Source of the DNA: Candidatus Saccharimonadota bacterium
GTDB lineage: Bacteria > Patescibacteriota > Gracilibacteria > UBA1369 > 2-02-FULL-48-14
Direction of reading: 5' to 3'
NCBI GenBank assembly: GCA_965230905.1
Contig: OZ246396.1
Coordinates: forward strand, 540,001 to 572,000
DNA: 32,000 nucleotides
Part shown: positions 5,432 to 30,098 of the stretch, in pieces
How positions within the stretch are numbered: the first letter of the stretch is position 1
Layout: each line of letters starts with the position of its first letter
Made by a program: the position numbers and the translations under genes
The notes under the pieces: generated by a model
Told to the model about the DNA's origin: nothing
Database searches by the model: none
What the model saw: only the letters and a program-made list of their open reading frames with translations

Positions 5432-5869
5432 TTATTTATAATCCCTGAGCAGTTTCATTCTACCGAACGATTTAGCCTTGTTGTAATATTTTTGATCTGC
5501 CGTTATAAAAATTCCGTTCAATTGTAGGGCTAGAGCGTGATAAGCAGAATCGTAAAAGGCTACCCCTGGGCATTTTTTCATTATTTTGTAGGCCAGAAAA
5601 CTTACTTCAAGGCCTAGTAGAGCTTCTCGAATCCGCAGATTCTTGAACGACGCAAAACTCATTAAGGCCTCTTGTTTTGAAAGGTTTCTTCCAAAATTGT
5701 TATTCAACTCCCATGACGTTAATGCGGGGATACAAGTTTCGAATTTTCTTTCCAAGAAGTTCTTTTTAAGAAGTTGAGCTTGTTCTAAGTCTTCCTCTTC
5801 TTTAATAAACCACTTCAATAGTACAGAGGTGTCAATAATGAATAGTGGTTTAATATCGGCGACCTTCAT
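5432..5869 (-). CDS. vapC: PIN-domain ribonuclease toxin (VapC-like)
   Basis: 145-aa ORF with a PIN-like N-terminus LFIIDTSVLLKWF and later acidic/hydrophobic blocks (FYDSAYHALA, IFITAD). It overlaps the upstream RHH gene by 20 nt. Visibly AT-richer than pheS. Confidence 0.72.
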   Translation of the reverse strand: MKVADIKPLFIIDTSVLLKWFIKEEEDLEQAQLLKKNFLERKFETCIPALTSWELNNNFGRNLSKQEALMSFASFKNLRIREALLGLEVSFLAYKIMKKCPGVAFYDSAYHALALQLNGIFITADQKYYNKAKSFGRMKLLRDYK

Positions 5870-9264: not shown

Positions 9265-9356
9265 ACGTATTTCCCTGAGAGGGGACTCTTAGGGAAACCC
9301 CTTGGAAAGAAATTTACAGTTTGCTAAACTGGGGCCACTCCTACTCCACGCTATTT

Positions 9357-12080
9357 ATGAAAAAATTGTTCTACGCCATTTTATTGGCCATGCTCATTGT
9401 GCCTATTTTTGTGCAAAAGCAAATGGTGGAAAAAGCGGATGCGGTCTGGCCTTTTACGGATGAACCCGGGCATGGTTTTGACAGTGGAGATGTCTGTGGA
9501 TTCGTTCATTCGGTTGCTGCTAGCTACCCGTCCATCGCGGCTTTGACTGCAACAGTGAACTTTGGTGTGGTGGCGGATGCGAATCAAGGTTGTGTGGATG
9601 AGAATGGATACTTTTTTTCCTCCAGCGCTCGTGAATCAGAGGCTATTTATAGCCGCACGGTGGGAGGGACCACCACTGCTTACACTCTAGACTTTGACTT
9701 CAACACCGCTTCCAATGTTTTTGTGGATCCTACAACCGGGGAGTGGAGTGGGGCTGCGCGAATCACCAGCTCAAGCACCCCTGCCATTCCGCCCGCTCAG
9801 CGTTGGGTGGATTTTGATTGGGACTGCAGCGATTCTTGTGGGCTCGACCCGGAGGATTACCATGTGTACACCGATATGACGACGGGAGCGGTGAATGGCT
9901 ATGCGTGGAGCGACTATTTTAATAGTTACATTAGCTTCAATGGACTCACCCAAGAACTTCCTGAACGGGGCATCACCACTCGTGTACAGATTTTGGCCAA
10001 CGACACCGACTACGGCCCTGATGATGTGGATGGTAGCACCGCGCCTTTGGCGGATGGAGCTGAATACTGGCGAGTGAAGGTTCAATTTATAGATTCGCTT
10101 ACGGGCATAGCGTTGGGTTCGGATGACCTCGATTCCTTGGCCATTACGGTTGAGGCTACCAGTGATTCTAATGTTTACCTCAACCAAGTGGAAAATAGCG
10201 GGGACGCTATTGAAGAGTCCTATGACAACACGCATTTGGGTTGCAGCTCGGGTAGCTATTGCGTGATCACGGAGGACGATGGTTCCGAAAGTTTTAATAC
10301 CTTTGTATATTCCGGTTCGCCCACCTCACAGTGGATCGGCGGGGACACGGATACGGATGCAAGCATAGAGAGTCCGGCCGACCGGGACGGGTGTATTTGG
10401 ATTTATGCCGATCAAGGTACGGGTTCTTGTGATGGAAGCAGCTCCACCAAAGAAGAGGTGTTTTTTGATCGCCAAAGTGATCGCAATAAATATGAAATTG
10501 ACTACATAAATATAGCGCCAAAGTTTGCCGGAGATCGGGACGTGAGCATGTACACATATGACACCGGCAGTGAGGCTTATGTAGAAGTGACGGGTGCCGC
10601 AGGGACTTGGTGGCAATATTATCCAGGTGAAGACGCGGCGGATCTTAGCTACCGGCCCCGTTTCCAAATCTCAAAATTTGTTTCTGTTTTTGATGGAGAG
10701 GATCACACGGCTATTTCAGAAAATGCCAGCACCATTCAATACTTGAGGACAGAGGGCAGGATGTCTACGACGTCCACTGCGTTTCTAAGTTATAGTGGGG
10801 CTGTCGCCAAGCCAAGCTACCGTGTGTATTACCAAATGGATGCGACGTCCAGTGCAAGCTCCGTTGCCACCAATGACCAGAAGCTTTTAATAGATACCGA
10901 TGTGATTCCGAGCGCGGCTATGTCCGCCGACGCAGAGGCCACTAAACGTACGGATTCTTTGACGGCTATGAATAGCTCTTACACCAACTATAAAAAGAGT
11001 TACGCCTTGGATTACGATCAAACGGAGACATACCTTTCCACCTGTGGAACTATTGGGTATGCGCCTTGTACTGCGGGGACCAATACGCTTGTGGATCCCA
11101 CCGCCGAACTGTGGATCTGTGATGACGCGCCCCTAACCACCATGTCCGCCGGTCAAGCGTCTTGTTACTACGCTGAATATTTGGAGCACATCGACCGCCA
11201 CGCGGCCCCAGAAAGCATGCTGGTGATTGGAGCCATCAACTCTGTGATCGATGCCGACGATGTGCTGGAAGAAGTTTCGGATACTGAGGGCACGGTGCTC
11301 TCCGTTTTGGGAACCACCGAGACCATCAACTTGCGCAATAAAATGTACGCTCAAGTGCTGCGTTACACCTTGGGCCAAAAGGCTAGTTCTGGGGAGTACA
11401 CCGACGATAGCGGTAGCTGTGCCCCTTCTTCCGATTTAGTGGAACTCATGGATGGATGGTTGGTGTTTGCGGAAGGAGACGTGACCATTGATTGTTTTGA
11501 CGGCAGCGATAAGACCTTGGTGGTGCTGGGCGGGGATGTCTACATCAACACCGATATCACGAATGGACGCATGGGAATCATTGCCTTTAAGCGCGATGGG
11601 CTGGGAGGAAATGTTTATGTGGATAATGAGGTTACCGACCTGTACGCCAATATGTTCTTGGATGGAAGCTTGTTCAGCTACGACGGAACCGCGCCTACGG
11701 GAACCGTTCCTGAATGGGGGAGTGATGAAGAGAGGCTGGAGGAGCTGATGCATCAGCTCTACCTCAAGGGGTCCTTGGTTTCCCGCAACACGGTGAATGG
11801 AGCGGGCACGGTGGACGGTAGCTATGACTTGGGAGATGGGACCACCACCACGGATTATGAGGTGGCCCGCGAGTATGACCTCAACATGATCCGTCAGTAC
11901 CGCCAGTGCCACCCAATTAAGGACGGTGCACCCGACACCACGACTAGGGAAGCGTGTAACGAAGGCGAAAAACTCTCCGAGTATGGCCAAGCCAACGGCA
12001 CCAACAACTCCTTCATTTTGGATTATGAACCGGCGGATGGACTGCCTGTGTTCCAAGTGGAATCTGGACTCTTCAACTAA
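9357..12080 (+). CDS. Large secreted/surface protein of unknown function
   Basis: The ORF track starts at TTG 9321. I prefer ATG 9357, which gives MKKLFYAILLAMLIVPIFV (signal/anchor). The protein is about 907 aa, rich in D/T/S/G with many Cys, and I recognise no catalytic motif. The C-terminal third has beta-helix-like stretches (TLVVLGGDVYINTDITNGRMGIIAFKRDGLGGNVYVDNEVTDLYANMFLDGSLF). Confidence 0.75.
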   Translation: MKKLFYAILLAMLIVPIFVQKQMVEKADAVWPFTDEPGHGFDSGDVCGFVHSVAASYPSIAALTATVNFGVVADANQGCVDENGYFFSSSARESEAIYSRTVGGTTTAYTLDFDFNTASNVFVDPTTGEWSGAARITSSSTPAIPPAQRWVDFDWDCSDSCGLDPEDYHVYTDMTTGAVNGYAWSDYFNSYISFNGLTQELPERGITTRVQILANDTDYGPDDVDGSTAPLADGAEYWRVKVQFIDSLTGIALGSDDLDSLAITVEATSDSNVYLNQVENSGDAIEESYDNTHLGCSSGSYCVITEDDGSESFNTFVYSGSPTSQWIGGDTDTDASIESPADRDGCIWIYADQGTGSCDGSSSTKEEVFFDRQSDRNKYEIDYINIAPKFAGDRDVSMYTYDTGSEAYVEVTGAAGTWWQYYPGEDAADLSYRPRFQISKFVSVFDGEDHTAISENASTIQYLRTEGRMSTTSTAFLSYSGAVAKPSYRVYYQMDATSSASSVATNDQKLLIDTDVIPSAAMSADAEATKRTDSLTAMNSSYTNYKKSYALDYDQTETYLSTCGTIGYAPCTAGTNTLVDPTAELWICDDAPLTTMSAGQASCYYAEYLEHIDRHAAPESMLVIGAINSVIDADDVLEEVSDTEGTVLSVLGTTETINLRNKMYAQVLRYTLGQKASSGEYTDDSGSCAPSSDLVELMDGWLVFAEGDVTIDCFDGSDKTLVVLGGDVYINTDITNGRMGIIAFKRDGLGGNVYVDNEVTDLYANMFLDGSLFSYDGTAPTGTVPEWGSDEERLEELMHQLYLKGSLVSRNTVNGAGTVDGSYDLGDGTTTTDYEVAREYDLNMIRQYRQCHPIKDGAPDTTTREACNEGEKLSEYGQANGTNNSFILDYEPADGLPVFQVESGLFN

Positions 12081-12086
12081 GAGCTC

Positions 12087-12284
12087 TTAGAAGAGCAGCA
12101 TAAGGTAGAGCATAAGCGCGAGTGTGATGAGCGCTCCGCTTAAACCTGTGAACACCACCGTGAGGTATACGGTGCGTTTGCTGAGGTAACGGAAACGGGC
12201 GGCGTGCTTAATGATGAGGCTGCTGTAAAAGGTGAAGCCGAGGAGGAAGAGAGCGAGGACGAGGCCGGTGATGAGTTGAAGCAT
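12087..12284 (-). CDS. Small two-TM membrane protein
   Basis: The track ORF (TTG start at 12335) overlaps the upstream gene. ATG at 12284 gives a 65-aa protein, MLQLITGLVLALFLLGFTFYSSLII...LTVVFTGLSGALITLALMLYLMLLF, with two hydrophobic helices. Confidence 0.5.
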   Translation of the reverse strand: MLQLITGLVLALFLLGFTFYSSLIIKHAARFRYLSKRTVYLTVVFTGLSGALITLALMLYLMLLF

Positions 12285-13710: not shown

Positions 13711-13757
13711 GCGCTGAGTCTAACCTATAGATGCCCCTGGAAAAAAGAGCATAAAAA

Positions 13758-13766
13758 TGGTATAAT
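13758..13766 (+). promoter_or_regulatory. Extended -10 promoter element upstream of the hydrolase pair
   Basis: TGGTATAAT (13758-13766) lies 20 nt upstream of ATG 13787, with AAGG just before the start. The same 9-mer recurs at 16970-16978. Confidence 0.4.
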
Positions 13767-13786
13767 CATAAGATTAAATTAAGGTT

Positions 13787-14773
13787 ATGACTGAGATACT
13801 TTCATCTGCCGCCCCCGAAGGCCCTCCAGAGAACCCTCTTGAAGGAGAAATTCCTGCTGAAATCATTGGGGAGGGAAGTAAGCTTGAATCCAGAGTAAAA
13901 CTCGCGGAATTGGAGGGGGACGTTTCAGGGATGGAAGCGAGTATTGGAAGCCTGAACCTTCCAAAAACCCCTCAAACGGCCACGCCTTCTGCGGCTGAGC
14001 CCACTCTTTGGAAGAAGCTCAAGTCTAGCCTTGGAGCTGCGGCCAAATGGTTCACCGACCATACGGGGTCTTTGGGACGTTGGCTCACAAAAACTTTTGG
14101 AGCTGAAGAAGAATTGCCTCACTATCGCACCGATGATGAAAGCTACGATCCCGATGATCCTGAAACCAAAAAACTGGTGGGAAGTGCAGAAAAACAGCTC
14201 AACAGTGCTTTAGAAAAAAATCCTAGCTGGCTGGGCTTGGCCCAAGAAGCCGCAAAAAGATCCACTATTGCGGTGCCTATTCTATTCGCCTTTGCCCGTT
14301 TTGAATCGGCATTCAATCCCAATGCCGTGAATGGTACCGTGGCCGGTTTGGGGCAATTCTGGGGACCTACTTGGGACCGATTTATGGCGGAGAACCCAGA
14401 TTTTAAGGGCGCTTCTCGCACCGATCCCCGAGCTTCTTTTTGCGCCATGGCTTGGTACGCCCGTAAAAATGCTGAGGAATGTAAAATAGATACGTCTGCA
14501 CCCGATGCCGCCGCTCGACTCTATGAAGCCCATCATGAAGGAGCGGGTGGTTTCGCTCAGCTTCAAGCCTTTCGCCGCGGAGAAATCACGGGTAAACAAA
14601 GAATCCCCAAAACCTACGCCGGAAAATCTTTCCCTAAGTTTGGAGTTCCCATTGTGGATACCTATGAAAATTATGTAAAACTGGTTACGGCCATGTCCGC
14701 CAAAGTTCAGGCGGTGGCAGATCTATACAACACCGTGCTGCCCGCTTATTCCTCACAGCAAACCAATTCATGA
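13787..14773 (+). CDS. Lytic transglycosylase (SLT-domain) protein without a signal peptide
   Basis: 328-aa ORF. SLT catalytic region FAFARFESAFNPNAVNGTVAGLGQFWGPTWDRF followed by LYEAHHEGAGGF. The first ~130 aa are low-complexity/acidic with an amphipathic helix, and no hydrophobic N-terminal segment is present. Confidence 0.8.
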   Translation: MTEILSSAAPEGPPENPLEGEIPAEIIGEGSKLESRVKLAELEGDVSGMEASIGSLNLPKTPQTATPSAAEPTLWKKLKSSLGAAAKWFTDHTGSLGRWLTKTFGAEEELPHYRTDDESYDPDDPETKKLVGSAEKQLNSALEKNPSWLGLAQEAAKRSTIAVPILFAFARFESAFNPNAVNGTVAGLGQFWGPTWDRFMAENPDFKGASRTDPRASFCAMAWYARKNAEECKIDTSAPDAAARLYEAHHEGAGGFAQLQAFRRGEITGKQRIPKTYAGKSFPKFGVPIVDTYENYVKLVTAMSAKVQAVADLYNTVLPAYSSQQTNS

Positions 14774-15675
14774 GCACGCCCAATAAACTGCCGGAATCGC
14801 AGAATGTGCCCGTTTCCACTCCAAGTGAAGGAGGCGTGAGTGCGGCTAGTGCTGCAGAGGGTTCCCGACGGGAATCCATAGTCAGTCGTGGAGATTTGGA
14901 TGACCAAATTCGTGCCGGGCGAACGCCTGAAGAGGTGCTTGCCGCCGCAGCCGGAGTGGACTCAGGTGCCGATGTGGATGATTTAGTGAGTGAGGAAGGC
15001 AAAGAAAAAGTACGCGGAATGTTCAGCGGGGTCTCTGATTTTTTCAGCAGCATTTCCAGTAAGCTGGGAGACGTGACCAAGTCCTTAGGGAAATTACTGC
15101 ACGATCTTTTTGGAGTGAAAGACTCGGCCGGTGGAGTGGATCCGGACGAAGACAGTGATGAAGATGATGACAACGATTACGATACGGACATAGTGCGAGA
15201 CCCAAAAGATACGATTTACCGACTCATTGACCTGTTAAATCCTAAAGCTCCTTTCTTTACTTTTCTGAACGGCAAAGCTCCTCGCATCACGTCACGTTAT
15301 GGAAATCGTGATGATCCTATGAGTCATGGCCACACTCAAAATCACAAAGGTATAGATTTGAGTTTGGCGTCGGGGGATCAAGATGTTGGTGAACCCATTG
15401 TGGCTACACGTCCACTTAAAGTTGCTTATACTGCGGTTGATAAAAATGGGGGAAATATTGTTGCGGTGGAAGATCCTGATCATCCTGGATTGGTGGTTCC
15501 TTTGCTTCATTTGCAAAGTCTCAATAACCGAGTAGCTGGAGATGCTATTCAGCCGGGTGAAGTTATTGCCCATGTTGGGAAAAGTGGCGCTCGCGTTAAG
15601 GGAGCTCACCTTCATGTCGAAGCTAAGCAAAATGGCCAGCACATCGATCCGGCTCCTTACTTAGGTATTGCCTAG
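14770..15675 (+). CDS. M23 family metallopeptidase without a signal peptide
   Basis: 301-aa ORF overlapping the previous gene by ATGA. M23 motifs HKGIDL and GAHLHVEAKQNGQHIDP. The N-terminal ~150 aa are disordered/acidic (DPDEDSDEDDDNDYDTD). Confidence 0.85.
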   Translation: MSTPNKLPESQNVPVSTPSEGGVSAASAAEGSRRESIVSRGDLDDQIRAGRTPEEVLAAAAGVDSGADVDDLVSEEGKEKVRGMFSGVSDFFSSISSKLGDVTKSLGKLLHDLFGVKDSAGGVDPDEDSDEDDDNDYDTDIVRDPKDTIYRLIDLLNPKAPFFTFLNGKAPRITSRYGNRDDPMSHGHTQNHKGIDLSLASGDQDVGEPIVATRPLKVAYTAVDKNGGNIVAVEDPDHPGLVVPLLHLQSLNNRVAGDAIQPGEVIAHVGKSGARVKGAHLHVEAKQNGQHIDPAPYLGIA

Positions 15676-19177: not shown

Positions 19178-19933
19178 ATGAGAAACTTTAAGCACGTTCC
19201 AGAAGAAGTTGAAGCACTCAAGCCCACGGGGATTTTTAATATTTCCTACACACATGCCACGTCCAGTACCTCGAGACCGGGAATAGAGAAACCGGGCAAA
19301 CTCATGGCGCCTCGAATCGCGTTGGCTAATGAGGCAGTTCCTTTTTCGGGGGAGCCTCAGTGGTACACCTATTTGTTTAGGGGGTACTACGTTTCGCTTT
19401 CTTCCTATCCTGATGCCTTAGACGACCACAAGTGGCAGACATATATAGCTCATGGAAGTTTATTGTGGACCCCTGAAGGGAGCGAGGGACTGATTCGCCT
19501 GCTTGAAGCGGAGAAAAGGCGAATTTTGGACGCACCTTACCGTAAGGCGGACTTCGATGATCCGCGCAGAAAGACTGATGCACGTATAAAAATCGATGGA
19601 TGTATTGAACTTGAACGAGCGAAGCAGGAAAAATATGCGACTCTGGATGATATAGAAAAGGCGAGGATTGCTGATCCAAAACCAGAAATTTATGTCTTTG
19701 ATGATCGTGTGAAAGAAATACTTTCTCCGGGCATTATCTTTGGGAAAAGCCTGCAGCAGCATTCGCACCCGTTTGTGCCGGCAGAAATAAACCTAGAGAG
19801 GTATTTGAGCGGCATGTTCACTTCGTTGGAAGTAGGGAAAACCAGGGAATGGATATCGGGAGTTTTAGAAAGGGACGTGCCGGTTGGCTCTTTGGATGCT
19901 TTAAATACTTGGGAAAAAAGTAAAGAGCGGTAA
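19178..19933 (+). CDS. Hypothetical protein (no recognised domain)
   Basis: 251-aa ORF. A candidate promoter lies upstream: TTGACG (19132-19137), 16-nt spacer, CATAAT (19154-19159). No signal peptide or TM segment. Confidence 0.6.
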   Translation: MRNFKHVPEEVEALKPTGIFNISYTHATSSTSRPGIEKPGKLMAPRIALANEAVPFSGEPQWYTYLFRGYYVSLSSYPDALDDHKWQTYIAHGSLLWTPEGSEGLIRLLEAEKRRILDAPYRKADFDDPRRKTDARIKIDGCIELERAKQEKYATLDDIEKARIADPKPEIYVFDDRVKEILSPGIIFGKSLQQHSHPFVPAEINLERYLSGMFTSLEVGKTREWISGVLERDVPVGSLDALNTWEKSKER

Positions 19934-20565: not shown

Positions 20566-21408
20566 ATGGATAATCCTCGCTCCGACGAAGACAGTACCCT
20601 CCCCGATGAGGCTTTGATGAATTACTTGGACCGCAATTTCCCTATAAGTACGGAAAGTAGAGACCGTGTCTTACAGGCAAGCTTGGCGGCTCTGGATGGT
20701 CTCGAGGGGAGAACTCGAGGTATAGTAGCTAAGGAGAGTGGCGTTGAGATGATTGCTTATGCCACCCGTGAGTTTAGAAAAATGATTGAAGTGGTGGGGG
20801 CTTCAGGCACTCTTCAAAATATTTATCCGCTGCGCGATGAAGCGTGGTATGAAAATTTTCCTCGGCCACATGGGCTTTCAAGTAACGACTTAACCATGCT
20901 CGACTCGCTAAAAGGACAATATGGGGATCTGCCAGAAGATTGTAGAAAATTTGGTGGTAAAGTTTACCCTTGGGAAGAGTTTCTAGATGTGAAGCCAGGT
21001 ATACAGTGTGATTTTTTGGTTGCCGGGAGTGGATTGAAGAAGGCGGCCCCCTTTTTTATAAATGAAAAAGGCTGCTTAGTATTCGGAGAGAATGGACGAA
21101 AGCCTGATGCAGACACTTTAAATACGAATTATATAGACAATAAAATCGATGCAATCTCAGCACCGGGGCGAAATTTGATTACTTTTCAGGAGTTTATGCG
21201 TCGTGTTCAAACAAAGCTTGAATGGGATCCGAACGTAAATACCTGGATGGAATCTGGACCCATAAGGCATCGCGTTTCAGTGGGGCATATTTACGAAGGG
21301 CAGGCAGGGCGTGATTTACGTGCACCAACACGGAAAGCCATGAATTTAGGAGCCTTAAGAGTGACGAGAGTGCCGCTCCATCTCCCCGCTGCTGCGCAGC
21401 CTGTTTAA
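20566..21408 (+). CDS. Hypothetical protein (no recognised domain)
   Basis: 280-aa ORF with an ATG start, no signal peptide and no motif I can name. Confidence 0.55.
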   Translation: MDNPRSDEDSTLPDEALMNYLDRNFPISTESRDRVLQASLAALDGLEGRTRGIVAKESGVEMIAYATREFRKMIEVVGASGTLQNIYPLRDEAWYENFPRPHGLSSNDLTMLDSLKGQYGDLPEDCRKFGGKVYPWEEFLDVKPGIQCDFLVAGSGLKKAAPFFINEKGCLVFGENGRKPDADTLNTNYIDNKIDAISAPGRNLITFQEFMRRVQTKLEWDPNVNTWMESGPIRHRVSVGHIYEGQAGRDLRAPTRKAMNLGALRVTRVPLHLPAAAQPV

Positions 21409-21581: not shown

Positions 21582-22106
21582 CTAATTCTCCAGTTCGGCG
21601 CTTTCTATAAAGATTTCCAGGATCCTTGTGCTCAAATCCTTATTAAGGAATCCTCCCACGAGTTGGTAGGTGGGAACATCCATGTTTTGGCCAGGAATGT
21701 AGAGAGAGAAGGCGTCGCGAGTGGTGATTTTTAGCGCTCGGTGGCCATCTATGATTATGTTTTCAGATTGGTACTTGTGCGTTTTTCTGAGGTCTTTCAG
21801 ACTACTGCCCTCTTCCTCAAAGAGGTAGGGGTAACTGAAAGTTATGCCCGTGGTGGTGTAACTGTTGATCGTGTCATCCCAATAAAGGAATTCAATTTCG
21901 CGAAAATCTTGCCCTTCTGGATGCAATTTAAAATAGACTTCTACTTCTTCGGGGTAGTCAAAACTGAGGTATTCATCCTTATAATGTCTAGACTCTTCAA
22001 CGCTACCCAGGGTTACTAAAGTCTTAGCTTCGACGAGCTCCGCTTCTGATTGAGGAGTGCTGTCAGAGAGGAAACACAAAAAAACTACTATAAATAAGCT
22101 TTTCAT
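21582..22106 (-). CDS. Secreted hypothetical protein
   Basis: 174-aa ORF with signal-peptide-like N-terminus MKSLFIVVFLCFLSDS. AT-richer than its neighbours by eye. Confidence 0.6.
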   Translation of the reverse strand: MKSLFIVVFLCFLSDSTPQSEAELVEAKTLVTLGSVEESRHYKDEYLSFDYPEEVEVYFKLHPEGQDFREIEFLYWDDTINSYTTTGITFSYPYLFEEEGSSLKDLRKTHKYQSENIIIDGHRALKITTRDAFSLYIPGQNMDVPTYQLVGGFLNKDLSTRILEIFIESAELEN

Positions 22107-23330: not shown

Positions 23331-24635
23331 ATGAAAAAAATCCTTTCAAGCTTTTTAGTAGTTGCCTTTATAGTAAGTTCGGTGCCCAGTGCCCTTGCGG
23401 CAACGGTGACCGATTTGCGAAGTCCCAGCGAGGTTCTTTCTTACAATGCGAATCTTCTTACGGGGCTATTCAATGACCAAACCGATGAGGCGCTGAGCAC
23501 CGACGCCGAAGATGTGAACATTCCTGCTGCGGAGGACGATGCTTTTTACATCGCTTACGACGAGAAATTCAACGGCATTGAGATAGATATCGACGTTTCT
23601 TTGGAAGGGTATGCCCTGGCCGAGCTTTTCTCCCAAGGTACCTATGTTCTTGAATACTGGGATGGGAATTGGAAAACCCTTTCCAGCGACAAATCGAATA
23701 ATGATCTGAAAAATGAGTCTACGGGCGACAACTTTTCTTTAAGCTGGGACCGTCCTGAGGATTGGGAAACCGTGGTTGTGAATAGTTCGGACGCACTTTA
23801 TTACGTTCGTTTGCGCATCACTGATTCATATAAATCTGATGATGAACAAGATGCGGAAGCACTGGCTTCACAGGTTTGGGTGAAGGATAGCGAGATTGTG
23901 GTGGTTGACGATGGAGATGAAGACGACGATGGCGACGGACTCACGAAAGATGAAGAAGACGACTATGGAACCAGTGACAGCGACGTGGACAGTGATAATG
24001 ATGGCGTGGAAGATGGCACCGAGGTGGATATGGGGACGGATCCCGATGATTCCGCGGATTACTTGGCGAATTACCCTGATTATGAAGATGACTGTAACGA
24101 TCCTTTTGACGACACCAATAATCACTGGGCTGAAGAATCCATATGTGCGCTGTACTCTGCAGGAGTGGTGGAAGGGCGCAGCCATGATGAATATGAACCC
24201 AATATGTCGGTGACGCGTGCGGAATTCTTGAAAATTGCTCTGCTGAATGCCGAACTCACGGTTACGGAAAACGACAATTACGGATACACCGATGTGGACA
24301 GCGACGATTGGTTTTACTCTTACGTCACCTACGCAACGGGTGAGGGCTACACCGAAGGATACTATGATAATAGCTTTCGGCCCAATGATTCTATCAACCG
24401 CGCGGAGGCCATGACCATTTTGATGCGGATTGCAGGCGTTCCCGAAGATGAGGAGGTGGACAGTGACTTTGAGGACATGGACGGAGATGAATGGTTTGCG
24501 TGGGCAGTTATGGAAGCCGTGGACGAACACATTGTGGAAGGCTATGACGATGGCGAGTTTAAACCTGAAAACTACATCACCCGTGCAGAAACGGCGGTCA
24601 TCGCTCGGCGCGCTTGGTATGTCTACTACGAATAA
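23331..24635 (+). CDS. Acidic secreted protein with TSP3-like Ca-binding repeats and three C-terminal SLH repeats (S-layer/cell-wall-anchored candidate)
   Basis: Signal peptide MKKILSSFLVVAFIVSSVPSALA. DSDVDSDNDGVEDGTEVDMGTDPDD resembles DxDxDG TSP3 repeats. SLH repeats: FDDTNNHWAEESICALYSAGVVEG...VTRAEFLKIAL, YTDVDSDDWFYSYVTYA...INRAEAMTILMR, FEDMDGDEWFAWAVMEAVDEHIVEG...ITRAETAVIARR. Confidence 0.85.
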   Translation: MKKILSSFLVVAFIVSSVPSALAATVTDLRSPSEVLSYNANLLTGLFNDQTDEALSTDAEDVNIPAAEDDAFYIAYDEKFNGIEIDIDVSLEGYALAELFSQGTYVLEYWDGNWKTLSSDKSNNDLKNESTGDNFSLSWDRPEDWETVVVNSSDALYYVRLRITDSYKSDDEQDAEALASQVWVKDSEIVVVDDGDEDDDGDGLTKDEEDDYGTSDSDVDSDNDGVEDGTEVDMGTDPDDSADYLANYPDYEDDCNDPFDDTNNHWAEESICALYSAGVVEGRSHDEYEPNMSVTRAEFLKIALLNAELTVTENDNYGYTDVDSDDWFYSYVTYATGEGYTEGYYDNSFRPNDSINRAEAMTILMRIAGVPEDEEVDSDFEDMDGDEWFAWAVMEAVDEHIVEGYDDGEFKPENYITRAETAVIARRAWYVYYE

Positions 24636-25047: not shown

Positions 25048-27243
25048 ATGAAAAAGCTAATCACACTCCTGGGGTTTGTGACGTATATTTTTGGCGCTAA
25101 CACGGCCTTTGCCATTGGGGTGGGGCTGGTGTCTGCTAATAATGAAGACGTCAACGTGTACCCGGATGGAGTCTTTTTAGATGGTATACTCGAGACCTCG
25201 TGGACCACGGATGCGTCTGATTTGGATGCAGATGATGTGCCGCTTCCCACTAAAGATAGCATGGTGACGGAAGTTCTTTATATTGGTTCCAACACGGTTT
25301 TCGATATCATTGATTTTGATATCACTACTGCGGGAGTTAGCAGCAGTACTTGTGTTGTTTGTCATCACTACACGGCCGAATACTACGATGGAGGGACCAG
25401 CGACTGGGAAACTTTAAGCTACACCGACAACACCAATAATTTTGAAACGGTAGGAGAGGGAACCTGGGAATTTGACGTACCTGCTGCGTGGGATTCTGCT
25501 GCGGGTAAGACTACGGTGGATGGCCAAACACTCTATTGGATGCGTTTAACCCCAAGGAGTACGACCACCATCACTTCTTCAGCGGATGCTGGGGAAATTG
25601 CTCTGCGTGCGTACAATGTGGAACTCACTCTTGAAGATGAACTTGGAGGGCCTATGGAAGGTTTCGTTTCTGAAGATTTCACTGTGAGCGCAGGAACGTC
25701 CAATGACGTGGCTGGATTCCGAGACATGGAAGATGGAGTTTACCAATTCGCTTTGGATACGGGACTTTCTGATAACAATTATCGTATTACTGCCAATGAA
25801 AATGGCTATGTAGATGAAGTCATTAACACCGGGGTGCTTGCTTCCATTAAAAAAACTTTGAGTGGGGAAATGCAATTTGCACACAAGATTACTATTATTG
25901 ATAACGACACCGTCGACCCTATAACGCCCGATACAGTCAGTATTGGATCGGTTAGCTGTACCATCTCTACAAGCACGGCCTACTGCCCTGCGAGCACCAC
26001 TCAAGATGGAACGTCTACGGATGTTGAGTCCGTTACCGTTACGAAATCCGGCTATGAATCCCGTACTACTGTGCTTAGTTCAGACCGTGATATAGATGCC
26101 GACTCTCAGGTGACCACGAGCGTGGCTCTTACGGAAACCGTAGCGACGGCTGATCCAACCGAAGCCAATCTCACCATTAATGTTACTGACGAAGATGGGG
26201 ATGCGATCACGAGCTTACTGGAAGGAGACTTCGATGTGTCTGGAGGAACTTCCAACGCTATTCACGCTTTCACCAACAGTGGAAGTGGGAACTATGTGCT
26301 CAGCCTTTCCATTGATAACAGCGACAACAGCTACGAGATTGAGGTTTCTGAAGATGGTTACGTGGCCGAAGACGTCACTACGGGTGAAATGACCGGGGAC
26401 GGCAGCAAGAGCGTTTCTTTGGACTTTGGATATAAATTGACGGTACTTGATGAGGACGGGGACACCGTTTCTGGCGCTTCGGTGAAAGCGGGAGACGACT
26501 ACGGCACGAGCTGTAGCTATTTGGGAGCTGGAGTTTATGGATGCGCGGTTCCGGTTGGGGATACGGACCTCGATTACAAAGTTACTTTGAGCGATTACGA
26601 AACGGAGTACGGCGAATTCAATTCAGCTCGTACCGACCACACGGATGCACAAGTGAGTGAAAGCGTGAGTTTGACCGTGGGGGAGAGCGATTGTGACACG
26701 GACTTCGATGACATTTACGGACACTGGGCGGAAGACTACATCACTGAACTTTACTGCCGTGGGGTGGTGAACGGACTGGATGACGACACCTTTGGACCCA
26801 GCAACTACGCAAGTCGTGCGGAGTTCCTAAAAATGGCTCTGCTCAACGCAGGTTACGATGTGGACGGGGCTTCTGGTGAAAGCTTCTCCGATGTTTCTTC
26901 TGGAGACTGGTTCTACGAATACGTTTCCTTTGGAGTGGAGGAAGACATCATCGAAGGATATAGCGACGATACTTTCCGTCCAAACAACCAAATCAACCGT
27001 GCGGAGGCGCTGGTGATTACCATGCGTATTGCTGGAATCGATGAATACGACGTGGACAGTGACTGGGATGAATTCGATGACGTAGATGACGATGATTGGT
27101 ATGCCTACGCCGTAGAAACCGCTGCCGATGAAGGCATTGTGGAAGGATACAGCGACGGGGACTTCAAGCCAGGCAACCCCATCACCCGTGCCGAAGTAGC
27201 TGCGATTTCTGTACGAACTTATGACGAATACTACGCGGACTAA
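25048..27243 (+). CDS. Acidic secreted protein with internal Ig/CarboxypepD_reg-like repeats and three C-terminal SLH repeats; paralog of 23331..24635
   Basis: Signal peptide MKKLITLLGFVTYIFGANTAFA. The N-terminal domain is shared with the paralog (EYYDGGTSDWETLSY / LYWMRLTP versus EYWDGNWKTLSS / LYYVRLRIT). Internal repeats include LTLEDELGGPMEGFVSEDFTVSAGTSND... and LTINVTDEDGDAITSLLEGDFDVSGGTSNA.... SLH repeats: FDDIYGHWAEDYITELYCRGVVNG...SRAEFLKMAL, FSDVSSGDWFYEYVSF...INRAEALVITMR, FDDVDDDDWYAYAVETAADEGIVEG...ITRAEVAAISVR. Confidence 0.85.
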   Translation: MKKLITLLGFVTYIFGANTAFAIGVGLVSANNEDVNVYPDGVFLDGILETSWTTDASDLDADDVPLPTKDSMVTEVLYIGSNTVFDIIDFDITTAGVSSSTCVVCHHYTAEYYDGGTSDWETLSYTDNTNNFETVGEGTWEFDVPAAWDSAAGKTTVDGQTLYWMRLTPRSTTTITSSADAGEIALRAYNVELTLEDELGGPMEGFVSEDFTVSAGTSNDVAGFRDMEDGVYQFALDTGLSDNNYRITANENGYVDEVINTGVLASIKKTLSGEMQFAHKITIIDNDTVDPITPDTVSIGSVSCTISTSTAYCPASTTQDGTSTDVESVTVTKSGYESRTTVLSSDRDIDADSQVTTSVALTETVATADPTEANLTINVTDEDGDAITSLLEGDFDVSGGTSNAIHAFTNSGSGNYVLSLSIDNSDNSYEIEVSEDGYVAEDVTTGEMTGDGSKSVSLDFGYKLTVLDEDGDTVSGASVKAGDDYGTSCSYLGAGVYGCAVPVGDTDLDYKVTLSDYETEYGEFNSARTDHTDAQVSESVSLTVGESDCDTDFDDIYGHWAEDYITELYCRGVVNGLDDDTFGPSNYASRAEFLKMALLNAGYDVDGASGESFSDVSSGDWFYEYVSFGVEEDIIEGYSDDTFRPNNQINRAEALVITMRIAGIDEYDVDSDWDEFDDVDDDDWYAYAVETAADEGIVEGYSDGDFKPGNPITRAEVAAISVRTYDEYYAD

Positions 27244-27268
27244 GTGAGAAGATGTGAAAAGTATAGAG

Positions 27269-27300
27269 AAAGGGCCCTGCTGAAGAGTGGGGCTCTTTTT
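27269..27300 (+). terminator. Intrinsic terminator after the second SLH gene
   Basis: GGGCCC (27272-27277) pairs with GGGCTC (27290-27295), including one G-U pair. The loop is 12 nt, the stem has an A/T extension, and a T-run follows at 27296-27300. Confidence 0.5.
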
Positions 27301-27336
27301 GTATCAAGAGGCTCATTTCTCTGGTTTAATGTTCCT

Positions 27337-29097
27337 ATGGAAAATGCCTACCTTCAACTGATTAAAACCGCATGGAAATTTGCGGAAGGGCGGAGGCCGC
27401 AGTACGCGCTGACGTATGCCATGTTTACAGTGGCAAATTTGATTATGATGTTGGAGCCACTGTTGCTTGGGCTATTCTTAAATGAAGTGCAGCTCAATGG
27501 TTTGGAGAATGAACGGAAGATACTTTTGTACTTGGCGGCCTATCCTGGTATTCAGCTGGCATTTTGGATTTTTCATGGAAATGCCCGCGTACTGGAACGA
27601 ATAAACGCCTATTATATTGTGGATAATTTTCGCCGAAAGCTCTTTGATTTGCTCGCATCTTTACCTTTGAAGTGGCACAAGAACAATCACTCGGGTGGGA
27701 CGATGAGTCGACTTGAAAAAGGCTCTAGTTCACTGAGAAACTTTGCTGAAGATGGATTTCAATACATTGAAACCGTGGTGCGGTTTTTTGCTTCTGCAAC
27801 GGCTTTGTTTTTTCTCTCACAGCTTTCTGGTTTTGTGGCGCTTGGCTTGGGACTCGTGTGTTTTCTTATCATTTTCCGTTTCGACAAACAGCTTATTAAG
27901 TACAACAAAGAAATGAATGAGGATTGGCATAAATACGATGCTACTTTTTATGATTATGTGGTCAATATGCGCACCGTGATCACGCTGCGTTTGGAGAAGT
28001 TGGCGAAGAACGAAACGGTGAAACGATTCTCTCGTTTGTTCCCTACATGGAAAAAGAATGCAAAAGTGAACGAACTCAAATGGTTTTTACTGAGCATGGT
28101 CTTGGCGGGTTTGGCCTCGTTGGTGATGCTGATTTATTTATACCAACAGTGGGAAAGTGGGGCCGTCATTTTGATCGGAACTACGGTGGCTTTGTATGAG
28201 TATGCGCACCGATTTACTGGTGTATTTTTTGATGTCGCCTGGAAATATGAGCAATTGGTTCAGTACAACACCAATATTCAATCGGTGAATCCTATTTGGG
28301 CGGCAGCGGAAATGCTGGATGGGAAGGTTGGGACGAAGCCTATCTCTAATAAGTGGAAACGAGTGGAAATTAAGGAGCTTTCCTTTCGTTATGAAGATGA
28401 GAAACATCGCTCGCACAACCTTAAAAATGTGCATTTGGTTTTGGAACGTGGGAAGAGAATTGCACTGATTGGAGAAAGTGGGAGTGGGAAAAGTACTTTG
28501 CTTACGCTACTTCGTGGTTTGGAGATGCCAGACTTTGTGAAGGTGAGTGTGGACGGTAAAGAGTCAGAACTCCATGCGCTTTCTAGTCATATGACGCTGA
28601 TCCCGCAGGATCCGGAGATTTTTGAAAATACCATTGAGTACAATGTGACGGCTGGAATTTCACATCGTGCTGCGGAGGTGCAGCAGGCCATTCGGCTGGC
28701 GCGTTTTGATGGAGTGGTGAAGCGTTTGCCGCGAGGCCTTGCGACAAATATTAAAGAAAAAGGTGTGAATCTTTCGGGAGGCGAGAAACAGCGACTTGCT
28801 TTGGCACGCGGCATTTTTGCAGCTAAAGACAGCAGCTTTATTTTGCTCGATGAACCCACGAGCAGTGTCGATGCAAAGAATGAGGTGAAGATCTACGAGT
28901 CGCTATTTAGATATTTTAAAGACCGTTGCATCGTTTCAACCATTCACCGTTTGCATCTGCTGCCCGAGTTCGACCACATCTATTTGTTTGAAGAAGGAAG
29001 GCTGGCGGCGGAAGGAACGTTTGATGAACTATTGAAAACGTATGAGCCTTTTCAGAAGATGTGGGAGGTGTACCAGAAAGCGGTAAATCGGGATTGA
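27337..29097 (+). CDS. ABC exporter, fused permease + ATPase (half transporter)
   Basis: The track start (GTG 27244) overlaps the terminator, so I prefer ATG 27337 (MENAYLQLIK). N-terminal six-TM exporter domain, then Walker A GESGSGKST, signature LSGGEKQRLALARG, Walker B FILLDEPTS and H-loop STIHRL. Confidence 0.88.
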   Translation: MENAYLQLIKTAWKFAEGRRPQYALTYAMFTVANLIMMLEPLLLGLFLNEVQLNGLENERKILLYLAAYPGIQLAFWIFHGNARVLERINAYYIVDNFRRKLFDLLASLPLKWHKNNHSGGTMSRLEKGSSSLRNFAEDGFQYIETVVRFFASATALFFLSQLSGFVALGLGLVCFLIIFRFDKQLIKYNKEMNEDWHKYDATFYDYVVNMRTVITLRLEKLAKNETVKRFSRLFPTWKKNAKVNELKWFLLSMVLAGLASLVMLIYLYQQWESGAVILIGTTVALYEYAHRFTGVFFDVAWKYEQLVQYNTNIQSVNPIWAAAEMLDGKVGTKPISNKWKRVEIKELSFRYEDEKHRSHNLKNVHLVLERGKRIALIGESGSGKSTLLTLLRGLEMPDFVKVSVDGKESELHALSSHMTLIPQDPEIFENTIEYNVTAGISHRAAEVQQAIRLARFDGVVKRLPRGLATNIKEKGVNLSGGEKQRLALARGIFAAKDSSFILLDEPTSSVDAKNEVKIYESLFRYFKDRCIVSTIHRLHLLPEFDHIYLFEEGRLAAEGTFDELLKTYEPFQKMWEVYQKAVNRD

Positions 29098-29105
29098 TCT
29101 GGTTT

Positions 29106-30098
29106 TTAGTCCTCGAAAGCTGTCGGTTTCAAAAATGTTTGCAAGTATTTGTCCAGAGAAGCAGCATCATCCAGTTTTTTAATGTAAGCCTGATAAGTCC
29201 GGACCATTTGTTCTGTCATAAAATCCAAATACTTCTCTATATGGCCCTCCATGGCTTTTTCAAATACATTCATGTGCTTTTCTCTTTGGCTATTCCAGAG
29301 AATTATAGGGTGATAACGATGGGACTTTAAAATACTGTTCATTAAGATCCTTCCTATACGGCCATTTCCGTCTACAAAGGGGTGTATTCGCTCAAACCGA
29401 TAGTAAAATCTAAAAGCTAATTCAGGTGGATATAGCTTCCCTTCGACTGAGTTATACCAATCTAATAGTTCTGATAATTTAGCAATTATTTCAGTGGCTT
29501 GAGCTGTATCTGAGTTTCCAACTACAATGGCTACTTCTCGTATGCCATGTTTGCTGGGTTCATGCGAAAGAAGGATCTTGTGAAGTTCTATGATTTTATT
29601 GATGCTCAATTTTTTTAAAACCTGAGGTGAGAAGCTGATCGCCTTTAAACTGTTCTCCACTTCAGCGTTTTTTTTAATGGATCCAGCAGATACGATTTTC
29701 TCAACCTCTTTTTTCGGCATTTTACTGCCCTCAATTTTGTTTGAGTTATAGATAAAATCGATCATAAAAGCCGTTTCCATGGCATGCTGCGCTACGTGCC
29801 CTAAGTCTTGTTTGTCTCTAAATAACTTTCCACGGAGCTGTTCCAGCTTTTGGATTACAGTCTCTTTAAAAGCTACTTTTGCCTGTGTTTTTCCTGTCCA
29901 ATACTTTGTTCTTACCTCACTTTCTTCTGTCTCCACCTTTCTTTTGAATTGCAGCTGTTTTTTTACCTTATTGATTGGATCATCCACTCTTCCCAGTGAG
30001 GTGTACTTAATTTTATTTTTGCCTTTTGCAACGTAAATTTTTTCTTTGGCATATAGGTATTGTTTCCCGCCGATCTTTTTAACTGAAAAGGTAGTCAT
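29106..30098 (-). CDS. Fic domain protein (putative AMPylase) with internal inhibitory motif
   Basis: 330-aa ORF with Fic motif HPFVDGNGRIGR. An [ST]xxxE[GN] motif (SNKIEG) lies N-terminal to the core, as in class II auto-inhibited Fic proteins. Confidence 0.85.
   Translation of the reverse strand: MTTFSVKKIGGKQYLYAKEKIYVAKGKNKIKYTSLGRVDDPINKVKKQLQFKRKVETEESEVRTKYWTGKTQAKVAFKETVIQKLEQLRGKLFRDKQDLGHVAQHAMETAFMIDFIYNSNKIEGSKMPKKEVEKIVSAGSIKKNAEVENSLKAISFSPQVLKKLSINKIIELHKILLSHEPSKHGIREVAIVVGNSDTAQATEIIAKLSELLDWYNSVEGKLYPPELAFRFYYRFERIHPFVDGNGRIGRILMNSILKSHRYHPIILWNSQREKHMNVFEKAMEGHIEKYLDFMTEQMVRTYQAYIKKLDDAASLDKYLQTFLKPTAFED

Follow-up and report, generated by a model that had tools for sequence, protein, structure and literature searches.

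How can two enzymes that cut peptidoglycan reach the wall when neither carries a recognizable export signal? The question is raised by a pair of overlapping genes in a 32,000-nucleotide stretch of DNA (the window) from a tiny groundwater bacterium. CPR/Patescibacteria, which account for a large part of bacterial diversity, are believed to live attached to other cells. To our knowledge, little is understood of how they get through the wall of a partner, or even through their own.

The two open reading frames occupy positions 13787-14773 (328 aa) and 14770-15675 (301 aa) on the + strand, as do all cassette features given below. They share an ATGA start/stop overlap (14770-14773), which by its sequence points to translational coupling. 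The promoter and 5' leader form a block (13736-13794) of a -35-like TGGAAA, an extended -10 element, an AAGG ribosome-binding site and the ATG. A consensus scan placed a promoter-like site at 13738-13766, where TGGAAA (13738-13743), a 17 nt spacer and TATAAT together match 10 of 12 positions; the extended -10 TGgTATAAT lies at 13758-13766. A preliminary description of this DNA had reported both the overlap and an extended -10 promoter, and both were borne out, the promoter as TGnTATAAT. The block is near-invariant across the six related loci compared, with DNA identity of 88-93% versus 71-78% in the coding flanks. The intergenic gap upstream of the cassette measures 76 nt; the promoter sits directly upstream and no small partner genes precede it. 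No terminator was found around the cassette by a terminator scan, and Rfam returned two tRNAs alone in the window, with no riboswitch or other RNA upstream of the cassette.

Gene 1 encodes a leader joined to an SLT lytic transglycosylase (Pfam SLT_4 and SLT, orthologues P0002-P0005). Leader part A (aa 1-72, 13787-14002) is acidic and Pro/Ala/Ser/Thr/Gly-rich; residues 1-68 have a net charge of -8 and 50% PASTGQ, and AF2 predicts a low-confidence helix at aa 24-53. Part B (aa 73-105, 14003-14101) is a Trp/Phe-rich amphipathic helix-turn-helix (LWKKLKSSLGAAAKWFTDHTGSLGRWLTKTFG) that aligns with the family hairpin and ends in a conserved Gly, with AF2 helices at 74-93 and 95-104 and a hydrophobic moment of 0.53. 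An acidic linker follows (aa 106-124, AEEELPHYRTDDESYDPDDPE..., 14102-14158), as judged by charge and by AF2, which predicts no regular secondary structure there (pLDDT about 50-55); net charge across the 30 residues after the hairpin is -7. The SLT catalytic domain (aa 125-325, 14159-14761) is modeled at pLDDT >90 and is matched by both Pfam SLT_4 (E=2e-10, 41 bits, cutoff 27) and SLT (E=1.6e-6, 28.1 bits, cutoff 21.3). Its catalytic Glu173 (14303-14305), within FESAF, is invariant in 5 sequences. The best Foldseek matches were phiKZ gp144 (E=2.9e-4), MltF and MltE. The profile, the catalytic Glu in an E-S motif and a goose-lysozyme-like helical fold place the domain in SLT/GH23 family 1.

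Gene 2 joins a leader to an M23 metallopeptidase (Pfam M23, orthologues P0007-P0009). Its leader part A (aa 1-79, 14770-15006), delimited by conservation, AF2 and composition, begins with the motif MSTPNKLPE, of which M1, K6, L7, P8 and E9 are invariant among M23 orthologues, and continues into an acidic region with predicted AF2 helices at 25-48 and 53-60. Part B (aa 80-115, 15007-15114) is an amphipathic hairpin (KVRGMFSGVSDFFSSISSKLGDVTKSLGKLLHDLFG) supported by family alignments and an AF2 helix at 89-114, and is closed by Gly115, a residue kept in at least 90% of module members. The poly-acidic linker (aa 116-143, ...GVDPDEDSDEDDDNDYDTD, 15115-15198) has a net charge of -12; linkers of this DPDEDxDTDxD type also occur in P0003, P0013, P0014, P0017, P0019 and the M23 protein of locus L006. 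The catalytic domain (aa 150-300, 15217-15669; AF2 pLDDT >90) matches Pfam M23 (E=9e-14, 51.9 bits, cutoff 28.7) and, by Foldseek, NMB0315, StM23, EnpA and LytM, with TM-scores up to 0.79 (target-length normalized). The zinc and catalytic residues H192 (15343-15345), D196 (15355-15357), H280 (15607-15609) and H282 (15613-15615) were assigned by invariance, and H247 is likewise invariant across M23 orthologues. Profile, HxxxD and HxH zinc ligands and fold are those of an active M23 peptidase as opposed to a degenerate LytM domain. With invariant catalytic residues and confidently predicted folds, the catalytic domains of both enzymes look active; the SLT region and M23 motifs first noticed in the two genes were confirmed, with Pfam scores above gathering.

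Neither protein has a Sec, Tat or lipoprotein signal or a transmembrane (TM) segment, and both N-termini are acidic and polar. Maximum Kyte-Doolittle hydrophobicity over 19 residues was 1.05 for the SLT and 0.89 for the M23 protein, in neither case at the N-terminus, in agreement with the initial observation that hydrophobic N-termini and lipoboxes are lacking. The sole RR pair (SRRES, in the M23 protein) is not followed by a hydrophobic stretch. Because both ORFs open at the first start codon past an in-frame stop, a signal peptide hidden further upstream is excluded. Classical signals appear to be ordinary in this genome, since a neighboring 919-aa protein bears a classical signal peptide (Kyte-Doolittle 19-residue score 2.07). 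Other export signals were considered and rejected. A double-glycine leader with a PCAT exporter was set aside for a misfit in motif register and because the ABC exporter at 27244-29097 has no C39 domain; T7SS LXG export showed neither a domain match nor partner genes; and a prepilin signal is absent. The 32-kb window holds no VirB4, VirB6 or coupling-protein genes, and neither it nor the short related contigs contains a secretion, holin or pilus gene fit to handle both proteins.

The two proteins share a motif, GSLGRWLTKTFG in one and KSLGKLLHDLFG in the other; the Trp-bearing hairpin peptide reads KGGWAGLLSGLSAGWSSISKWLGDAGKKFGDWLKKLFG. Could this resemblance be a chance or compositional likeness between disordered, low-complexity tails without common function? 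Pairwise identity of the N-termini is only 22-23%, with modest BLASTP values (E=5e-4 at best, range 5e-4 to 6e-3), and AlphaFold confidence in the region is low (pLDDT about 40-69). Against this, a profile built with the window proteins excluded scored them at 60.7 and 36.6 bits, far above the best of 2000 shuffles (13.4 bits), so that the similarity survived a proper significance test. A model of M23-type leaders alone also matched 10 of 16 SLT, GH73 and Cys-peptidase leaders at E=1e-10 to 1e-39, and the remaining 6 only at E=1e-4 to 0.02. Family alignments conserve the Trp, Gly and N-terminal motif positions, and the module recurs, always N-terminally, in about 27 proteins that span four or more enzyme classes. 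On these alignments, the N-terminal region common to both proteins is real homology; a chance origin is refuted at the level of sequence comparison and retains a negligible probability.

Several features of the leader were redrawn by the wider alignment. The motif SLG[RK] of the preliminary description is indeed present in both proteins but is local to this genome, and the family-wide form is [WF][LIV]xx[LIV][FLM]G, whose last Gly is kept by 90% or more of the members. The first 70-80 residues, initially taken as low complexity, are acidic and biased but not plain: most members begin with MxxP[DE]KLPE, and a helix is predicted. The poly-acidic linker holds for both window proteins and is common among members but not universal, net charge ranging from +1 to -12 (0 to -12 in most). 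AlphaFold returned helices in the module, but only at low confidence, so the leader structure is suggestive only. Searches of Pfam, NCBIfam, PHROG and PDB gave no match to the module as a whole, consistent with the first impression that no export signal of this form had been described. Nothing in PDB or Pfam was significant, and a match to a designed repeat protein was compositional. The in-plane amphipathic anchor helix of HCV NS5A aligned at E=1.1, which is an analogy only.

The distribution of the module was defined by an exhaustive HMM search of 1.84 billion representative proteins, which gave 28 hits; the module occurs about 27 times. All strong matches cover residues 1 to about 145, and the partner is always a peptidoglycan hydrolase: SLT, GH73, one of two M23 subtypes, or a probable NlpC/P60-like Cys peptidase. 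Pfam identified the C-terminal domains as SLT, M23, Glucosaminidase (PF01832) and, weakly, NlpC/P60 (E=0.04-0.11). The Cys-peptidase domain of these relatives had no match among PDB sequences, and its NlpC/P60-like assignment from sequence is provisional. The module recurs on every orthologue and on hydrolases of three further classes, which answers the preliminary question of whether it is found beyond this pair. It is present in every complete cassette gene of the eight loci compared, and none of the 654 ORF segments searched carried it outside cassette genes. A GTDB genome scan with the SLT alignment gave one distant match, a 1250-aa multidomain SLT protein in a Peregrinibacteria MAG, without the module. 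Viral contigs searched with the M23 and SLT alignments gave catalytic-domain matches only, or none, and no module; the M23 matches sit in an 1864-aa jumbo-phage virion protein. A word-indexed module search returned P0012 only, its candidate list being saturated by low-complexity words.

Gene order is PGM, cassette, NadE in all eight loci. The cassette genes overlap or abut one another, and the last abuts NadE. The core-genome position and strong conserved promoter suit a housekeeping autolysin equally well. Among loci with readable cassette content (L004 and L009 being read together), 7 of 7 pair one or more glycan cutters (SLT or GH73) with one or more peptide cutters (M23 or Cys peptidase), which fits the two-enzyme wall-breaching cassette initially proposed. 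The contents of the slot vary sharply. In the sister locus L006, TopA, PGM and NadE are 96.6%, 95.4% and 92.5% identical to those of the window, and the cassette encodes a Cys peptidase, GH73 and M23b, versus SLT and M23a in the window. The M23 proteins of the two loci are 50% identical in their leaders and only 27% in their catalytic domains. The window SLT leader (aa 1-111, parts A and B) shares 41% identity (E=6e-22) with that of the L006 Cys peptidase P0028; the window SLT catalytic domain is 78% identical to the SLT of L003. DNA homology between loci breaks at the catalytic domains. As read from these comparisons, catalytic domains are swapped between close relatives behind recognizably the same leaders. 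That one leader heads four or more kinds of wall-cutting enzyme at one chromosomal spot suggests an unrecognized mode of delivery for such enzymes.

The core of the leader also has a likeness among phage proteins. Among the weak profile matches to the module, P0031, P0032 and P0034 are true tape-measure proteins (PHROG E=6e-82, 8e-149 and 3e-73), and the hairpin aligns with them repeat by repeat. Residues 68-288 of the window M23 protein match phrog_167, a tape-measure family. Phage tape measures pass the tail tube as an extended helix and engage membranes, and their repeats adjoin SLT or M23 domains. The aromatic columns of the hairpin are spaced about 11/6/11; tape-measure proteins contain Trp/Phe repeats of 11 or 18 residues (PMC5099701). 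By alignment, the core hairpin resembles one tape-measure repeat unit. The match is limited to about 35 residues of an amphipathic helix rich in aromatics, and it could reflect convergence.

The reading that we favor, at a probability of about 0.5, is that the module is a lineage-specific, Sec-independent targeting or export leader carried by interchangeable wall-breaching enzymes, in which slot and promoter are conserved and the payload varies. Each protein has three parts: an N-terminal leader (about 105-140 aa), a linker that is flexible and often acidic, and a wall-cutting domain whose catalytic apparatus is intact. The leader would act as a constant 'address', made up of the N-terminal motif, a helix within an acidic disordered stretch, and the Trp/Phe-rich amphipathic helix-turn-helix ending in Gly; the catalytic domain would be the exchangeable 'payload', recombined at the linker. 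In place of a Sec signal, the leader may engage the membrane and direct the enzymes to the outside. One candidate route is the type IV secretion or pilus machinery, which is common in CPR bacteria; self-insertion and a holin-like lesion are others. Once outside, the glycan cutter and the peptide cutter could jointly attack one patch of wall. Because payload turnover is fast between near-identical genomes, we incline to an attached host's or neighbor's wall, or a cell-cell interface, as the target rather than to routine self-growth.

A further and rather doubtful extension of this reading is that the leader is a domesticated tape-measure fragment. It would serve as a Sec-free membrane-crossing device, self-sufficient or machine-assisted, that brings peptidoglycan hydrolases, folded or unfolded, from inside a wall-bearing, ultra-small CPR cell to an attached host's envelope or through it, with payloads tracking host wall chemistry.

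The same locus might instead encode housekeeping autolysins that act on the cell's own wall during growth, daughter-cell separation or making room for pili, secretion machines or an S-layer. The leader would then be a localization or regulatory domain that tethers the enzymes to a membrane or machine, and export would still be unconventional. Such a role is in keeping with the PGM-NadE core slot in every relative found, the near-invariant strong promoter and the lack of immunity genes. The organism has a wall with SLH-domain proteins, and this wall needs remodeling. The pairing of glycan and peptide cutters is also seen in PrgK, TraG and CwlT (PMC12102498). What speaks against it is that catalytic class and subtype vary despite flanks that are 92-97% identical, which is unusual for a constant own-wall chemistry, and that export stays unexplained. 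We consider own-wall autolysins possible, if on the unlikely side.

In a phage-like lysis or release cassette, the enzymes would build up in the cytoplasm, kept at the membrane by the amphipathic hairpin, and would reach the wall only once the membrane is breached, whether a holin-like protein or the hairpin makes the breach; programmed lysis, vesicle release or abortive infection would follow. Canonical endolysins as a rule have no signal peptide, the nearest structural and profile relatives of both catalytic domains include phage enzymes, namely phiKZ gp144 and PHROG endolysin, virion-protein and tape-measure families, and the hairpin is itself tape-measure-like. Strain-level variability is likewise a trait of defense or lysis loci. 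A conserved small two-TM ORF lies nearby (12087-12284), but it is on the - strand within the PGM operon, matches no holin family and has no charged C-terminus of the holin type. No other phage genes surround the cassette, its flanks being housekeeping genes, and the module is absent from the viral contigs searched with the M23 and SLT alignments. A constitutive-looking promoter on a lethal cassette would moreover demand tight post-translational control. Taken together, these points make a lysis cassette improbable.

Whichever reading holds, the module merits family definition because Pfam has none at present. The locus offers a defined object: a leader of roughly 120 aa found only on wall-cutting enzymes, behind a conserved promoter and with naturally swapped payloads. 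Should the leader mediate membrane crossing or export independent of Sec, it would count as a new delivery signal, perhaps one taken over from phage tape-measure proteins, and as a useful tag for lysin delivery. Were the leader truly a domesticated phage fragment, it would represent a new class of delivery signal and give direct molecular access to the way in which episymbiotic CPR bacteria open up their hosts. If the enzymes are the cell's own autolysins, the locus would show that a reduced genome exports essential wall enzymes by an unconventional route.

The cassette shares individual traits with several known systems. Conjugation and type IV secretion hydrolases of monoderms (PrgK, TraG of pIP501, CwlT, TcpG) open a local hole by means of SLT or muramidase together with CHAP, NlpC/P60 or LytM domains. 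Three of these space-making enzymes, PrgK, TraG and CwlT, are reported to join glycan- and peptide-cutting activities (PMC12102498). They have an N-terminal TM anchor or signal and lie inside T4SS clusters, whereas the window proteins have no TM segment and no T4SS gene of the VirB4, VirB6 or coupling-protein kind lies in the 32-kb window. FlgJ likewise has a disordered N-terminal export and assembly region ahead of GH73 or M23 and exits without a Sec signal, but it contains a Rod-binding domain that the window proteins do not (Pfam, E up to 10), and no flagellar genes are nearby. Long-type leaders of SLT/GH73 orthologues recall SAR endolysins in a Gly/Ala/Ser-rich, weakly hydrophobic helix (e.g. 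WLSAGLSTLAFAVSSGG) that adjoins the amphipathic helix. SAR endolysins carry theirs, a TM domain, at the extreme N-terminus; here the helix is some 100 residues away from that end and reaches a KD value of only 1.0-1.1, and it is absent from both window proteins (none in the first 70 residues).

Phage tape-measure proteins and virion-associated lysins (T5 Pb2, TM4 TMP, TP901-1 TMP/Tal) likewise place Trp/Phe amphipathic repeats directly upstream of a peptidoglycan hydrolase, and tape-measure proteins share with the window proteins both the roughly 11-residue aromatic spacing and the lack of a signal peptide. The window proteins differ in having a single repeat unit, in size (301 and 328 aa versus >600), in their chromosomal housekeeping neighbors instead of a tail gene cluster, and in the extra conserved acidic N-terminal part of their leaders. 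Most antibacterial peptidoglycan-hydrolase effectors come with an immunity gene; none lies beside the enzymes here, and there are no small intervening ORFs in the window, L006 or L013. Polymorphic toxins keep a conserved domain for trafficking at the N-terminus, whereas their C-terminal toxin domains recombine (Zhang et al. 2012, PMC3482391). The cassette resembles polymorphic toxin and effector systems (T7SS LXG, T6SS peptidoglycan-hydrolase effectors) in its constant N-terminus, exchanged C-terminal enzymes and recombination at the linker, and polymorphic toxins in strong divergence between close relatives. It departs from polymorphic toxins in having no adjacent immunity gene and no recognized trafficking domain (LXG, PAAR, RHS, TPS, MuF) or small partner genes, and in that all of its payloads are peptidoglycan hydrolases, several of them co-expressed from one core-slot operon.

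Gene 1 (13787–14773, + strand) encodes a 328-aa SLT lytic transglycosylase protein and gene 2 (14770–15675, + strand) a 301-aa M23 peptidase protein. Both reading frames begin at the earliest start codon 3' of an in-frame stop, so a longer hidden N-terminus is not possible. The overlapping pair behind an extended -10 promoter, as given in the preliminary description, was borne out by the ATGA overlap, by Pfam matches above curated cut-offs (gene 1: SLT_4, E=2e-10, and SLT, E=1.6e-6; gene 2: Peptidase_M23, E=9e-14) and by a sigma-70-like site at 13738–13766 (TGGAAA, 17 nt, TATAAT) with TG ahead of the -10 hexamer. The ~60-nt block comprising promoter, 5' leader and start codon (13736–13794) was almost invariant over six loci. 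Its DNA identity (88–93%, core near-invariant) exceeds that of every neighbouring coding sequence (coding flanks, 71–88%), which suggests that expression is strongly selected or that the block holds a regulatory site not yet recognised. As family members, the SLT/GH23 and M23 catalytic domains are unremarkable. Glu173 of the SLT enzyme (in FESAF) and the zinc and catalytic residues of the M23 enzyme (H192, D196, H247, H280, H282) were invariant in orthologues. AlphaFold gave pLDDT >90 for SLT residues 125–325 and M23 residues 150–300, with Foldseek neighbours phiKZ gp144, MltF and MltE for the former and NMB0315, StM23, EnpA and LytM for the latter. Judged by these residues, folds and matches, both enzymes look active.

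As originally reported, neither protein has a hydrophobic N-terminus or lipobox, and a Tat motif was also absent from both. Kyte-Doolittle 19-residue maxima were 1.05 for SLT, located within its catalytic domain, and 0.89 for M23. The neighbouring 919-aa protein (9321–12080, + strand) has a textbook N-terminal signal peptide (2.07); classical signals thus look normal in this genome, and both enzymes lack them. This neighbour contains many Cys residues and matched no Pfam domain. Syntenic in three related loci (L001, L004, L006), it is only 74.5% identical to the L006 copy, versus 92–97% for flanking proteins, and looks like the fast-evolving surface proteins of Peribacteria (PMC4736985).

Pairwise BLASTP of the SLT and M23 N-termini gave E=5e-4. 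A profile of 24 related N-termini, from which the two window proteins and the relative nearest to them were left out, scored the M23 leader at 60.7 bits and the SLT leader at 36.6 bits, against 13.4 bits for the best of 2000 composition-preserving shuffles. Chance similarity is excluded, and the reported likeness of the two N-termini survives a significance test. A profile of M23-type leaders alone recovered 10/16 SLT, GH73 and Cys-peptidase leaders at E=1e-10 to 1e-39, the remaining six only at E=1e-4 to 0.02. The leader opens with MxxP[DE]KLPE in most members (MSTPNKLPE in the window M23), followed by an acidic, Pro/Ala/Ser/Thr/Gly-rich region (net charge -2 to -20) containing a predicted helix of consensus EGGVSAEAVxEGQxRAxDQxLAAL. 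Next comes a Trp/Phe-rich amphipathic helix-turn-helix (the hairpin; consensus KGGWAGLLSGLSAGWSSISKWLGDAGKKFGDWLKKLFG), whose aromatic columns are spaced by ~11, 6 and 11 residues and whose C-terminal Gly is shared by ≥90% of members. The poly-acidic linker noted earlier, often of DPDEDxDTDxD type, proved common without being universal (net charge +1 to -12, most 0 to -12). AlphaFold predicted helices at 25–48, 53–60 and 89–114 in the M23 leader and 24–53, 74–93 and 95–104 in the SLT leader, at low confidence (pLDDT 40–69) and with disorder elsewhere. With no match in Pfam, NCBIfam, PHROGs or PDB sequences, the leader is a member of no described family.

Searched exhaustively by HMM, 1.84 billion representative proteins yielded 28 matches at E≤1e-3, 22 of them <1e-10. 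In all strong matches the module occupies residues 1 to ~145 of 285–480-aa proteins, and its carriers are peptidoglycan hydrolases and nothing else; the module recurs in relatives, always N-terminally. Payloads comprise SLT, M23 of two subtypes, GH73 (Glucosaminidase PF01832, E=1e-27 to 1e-32; fused to M23 in one protein) and a Cys-His domain. The last occurs in two variants behind the same leader (NHCSGWCDSVFEKAGL...DHQDI and QHCWNWAEKVCQQVG), carried by P0012 (L003 3592–4449), P0019, P0022, P0028 and P0029. Since its NlpC/P60 similarity in Pfam is weak (E=0.04–0.11) and no PDB sequence matched, it may represent a papain-like family of peptidoglycan peptidases that is divergent or new.

The leader-bearing genes form a cassette lying between a PGM/PMM gene and NadE-SmpB in 8/8 loci from different samples. 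The window holds SLT and M23; L003 a Cys peptidase, SLT and a third, truncated gene; L004 and L009, read together, SLT and a Cys peptidase; L006 a Cys peptidase, GH73 and M23; L007 the GH73-M23 fusion; and L008 and L013 GH73 and M23. Every readable cassette combines one or more glycan cutters with one or more peptide cutters. Across 654 ORF segments from the window and fetched loci, the module profile matched all complete cassette genes and no others. L006 is a very close relative (TopA 96.6%, PGM 95.4% and NadE 92.5% identical to the window proteins). Its first gene has a leader with 41% identity (E=6e-22) to that of the window SLT but a Cys peptidase in place of SLT as payload. The window SLT domain shares 78% identity with its counterpart in L003, a more distant locus. 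The leaders of the window and L006 M23 proteins are 50% identical, their catalytic domains only 27%. DNA homology between the two loci ends at 13920, returns only over the M23 leader (14767–14841 and 14935–15182) and is absent through the M23 catalytic domain up to NadE. These contrasts and breaks show that catalytic domains are swapped at or near the linker while leaders remain in place.

Many tape-measure proteins contain SLT or M23 domains. Three weaker profile matches (P0031, P0032, P0034), aligned over the hairpin alone, are genuine phage tail tape-measure proteins (PHROG E=6e-82, 8e-149 and 3e-73), whose repeats, for example RGALDQASAAWRSISDWFSRLPGDVGRWFTDT, match the hairpin at Trp, Gly and hydrophobic positions. 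Window M23 residues 68–288 (hairpin plus M23 domain) gave E=4.7e-4 against phrog_167, a tape-measure family. Tape-measure proteins have 11- or 18-residue Trp/Phe repeats and a role in wall and membrane crossing (PMC5099701). The window proteins look like one such repeat unit plus a hydrolase behind a lineage-specific acidic N-terminus; the likeness, spanning only ~35 residues, may reflect common descent or convergence. P0035 (622 aa, from an AT-rich organism), likewise returned by the profile search, has a signal peptide, two hairpin-like units (GILGALSNLVKSIGKWFSDLTKSIGNFFSDLL), a C-terminal hydrophobic region and weak tape-measure matches in PHROG, so the unit is also found outside canonical tape-measure proteins. 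The closest viral relative found is a leaderless 1864-aa jumbo-phage protein (L012 2007–7601; 353-kb IMG/VR contig UViG_3300031992_000005), in which a lysozyme-like region accompanies an M23 domain with 34% identity to the catalytic domain of the window M23.

The window sequence lies on a 1.3-Mb contig and is present in a Hainich groundwater 0.2-um sample. A scan of GTDB species representatives with the SLT alignment gave a single match, in a Candidatus Peregrinibacteria MAG. Amid housekeeping genes (PheST, TopA, PGM, NadE, SmpB) lie genes for PIN-domain (5432–5869), Fic/DOC-domain (29106–30098) and PspC-domain membrane (30182–31303) proteins, all on the - strand. Two + strand SLH-domain proteins (23331–24635 and 25048–27243; three C-terminal SLH each, E=2e-36 and 1.5e-42), with tRNA-Thr between their genes, are followed with stop/start overlap by an ABC exporter lacking a C39 peptidase domain (27244–29097, + strand). 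Use of the standard genetic code, the large secreted neighbour rich in Cys and the presence of S-layer-type proteins are consistent with published Peribacteria biology (PMC4736985). GC content is unlike that of Peribacter riflensis. Placement within CPR, close to Peregrinibacteria, is probable. ORFs of 251 aa (19178–19933, +), 280 aa (20566–21408, +) and 174 aa (21582–22106, -; signal-peptide-like N-terminus) had no Pfam match. Immediately downstream of PGM, a small two-TM ORF (12087–12284, - strand; MLQLITGLVLALFLLGF...KHAARFRYLSKR...LMLYLMLLF; called at ~65 aa in related loci) is kept at 65–68 aa in L001, L003, L004 and L006. It matched nothing in Pfam or PHROG. A holin-like role was considered and gained no support. 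L005 (7086–10838; Candidatus Peregrinibacteria MAG JABJMC010000019.1) encodes a 1250-aa protein with neither signal peptide nor leader; it has a central SLT_4-like domain and regions that by eye resemble SGNH hydrolases and phosphatases.

We propose that the module serves for targeting or export in place of a signal peptide. Its Trp-rich, amphipathic hairpin would interact with the membrane, and the co-expressed glycan and peptide cutters would breach the wall locally. The original observation is confirmed as a whole and its interpretation supported in part: glycan and peptide cutters are paired behind an undescribed N-terminal module unique to peptidoglycan hydrolases, and the export role stays a proposal. 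Payload turnover between near-identical genomes favours another cell's wall as the target. The lack of immunity genes in the cassette, its place in the core genome and its strong, conserved promoter keep a role as autolysins of the cell's own wall a live, though less likely, alternative. Service as a phage-like lysis or release cassette appears decidedly improbable.

New here is an undescribed N-terminal module confined to peptidoglycan hydrolases, with a conserved slot and promoter and modular payload exchange. Lacking an immunity gene and a known trafficking domain, the cassette falls outside polymorphic toxin systems, and its proteins belong to neither tape-measure proteins, SAR endolysins, T4SS VirB1-like hydrolases nor FlgJ. 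In its manner of working, the system would resemble a set of polymorphic effectors or a virion lysin split in two.
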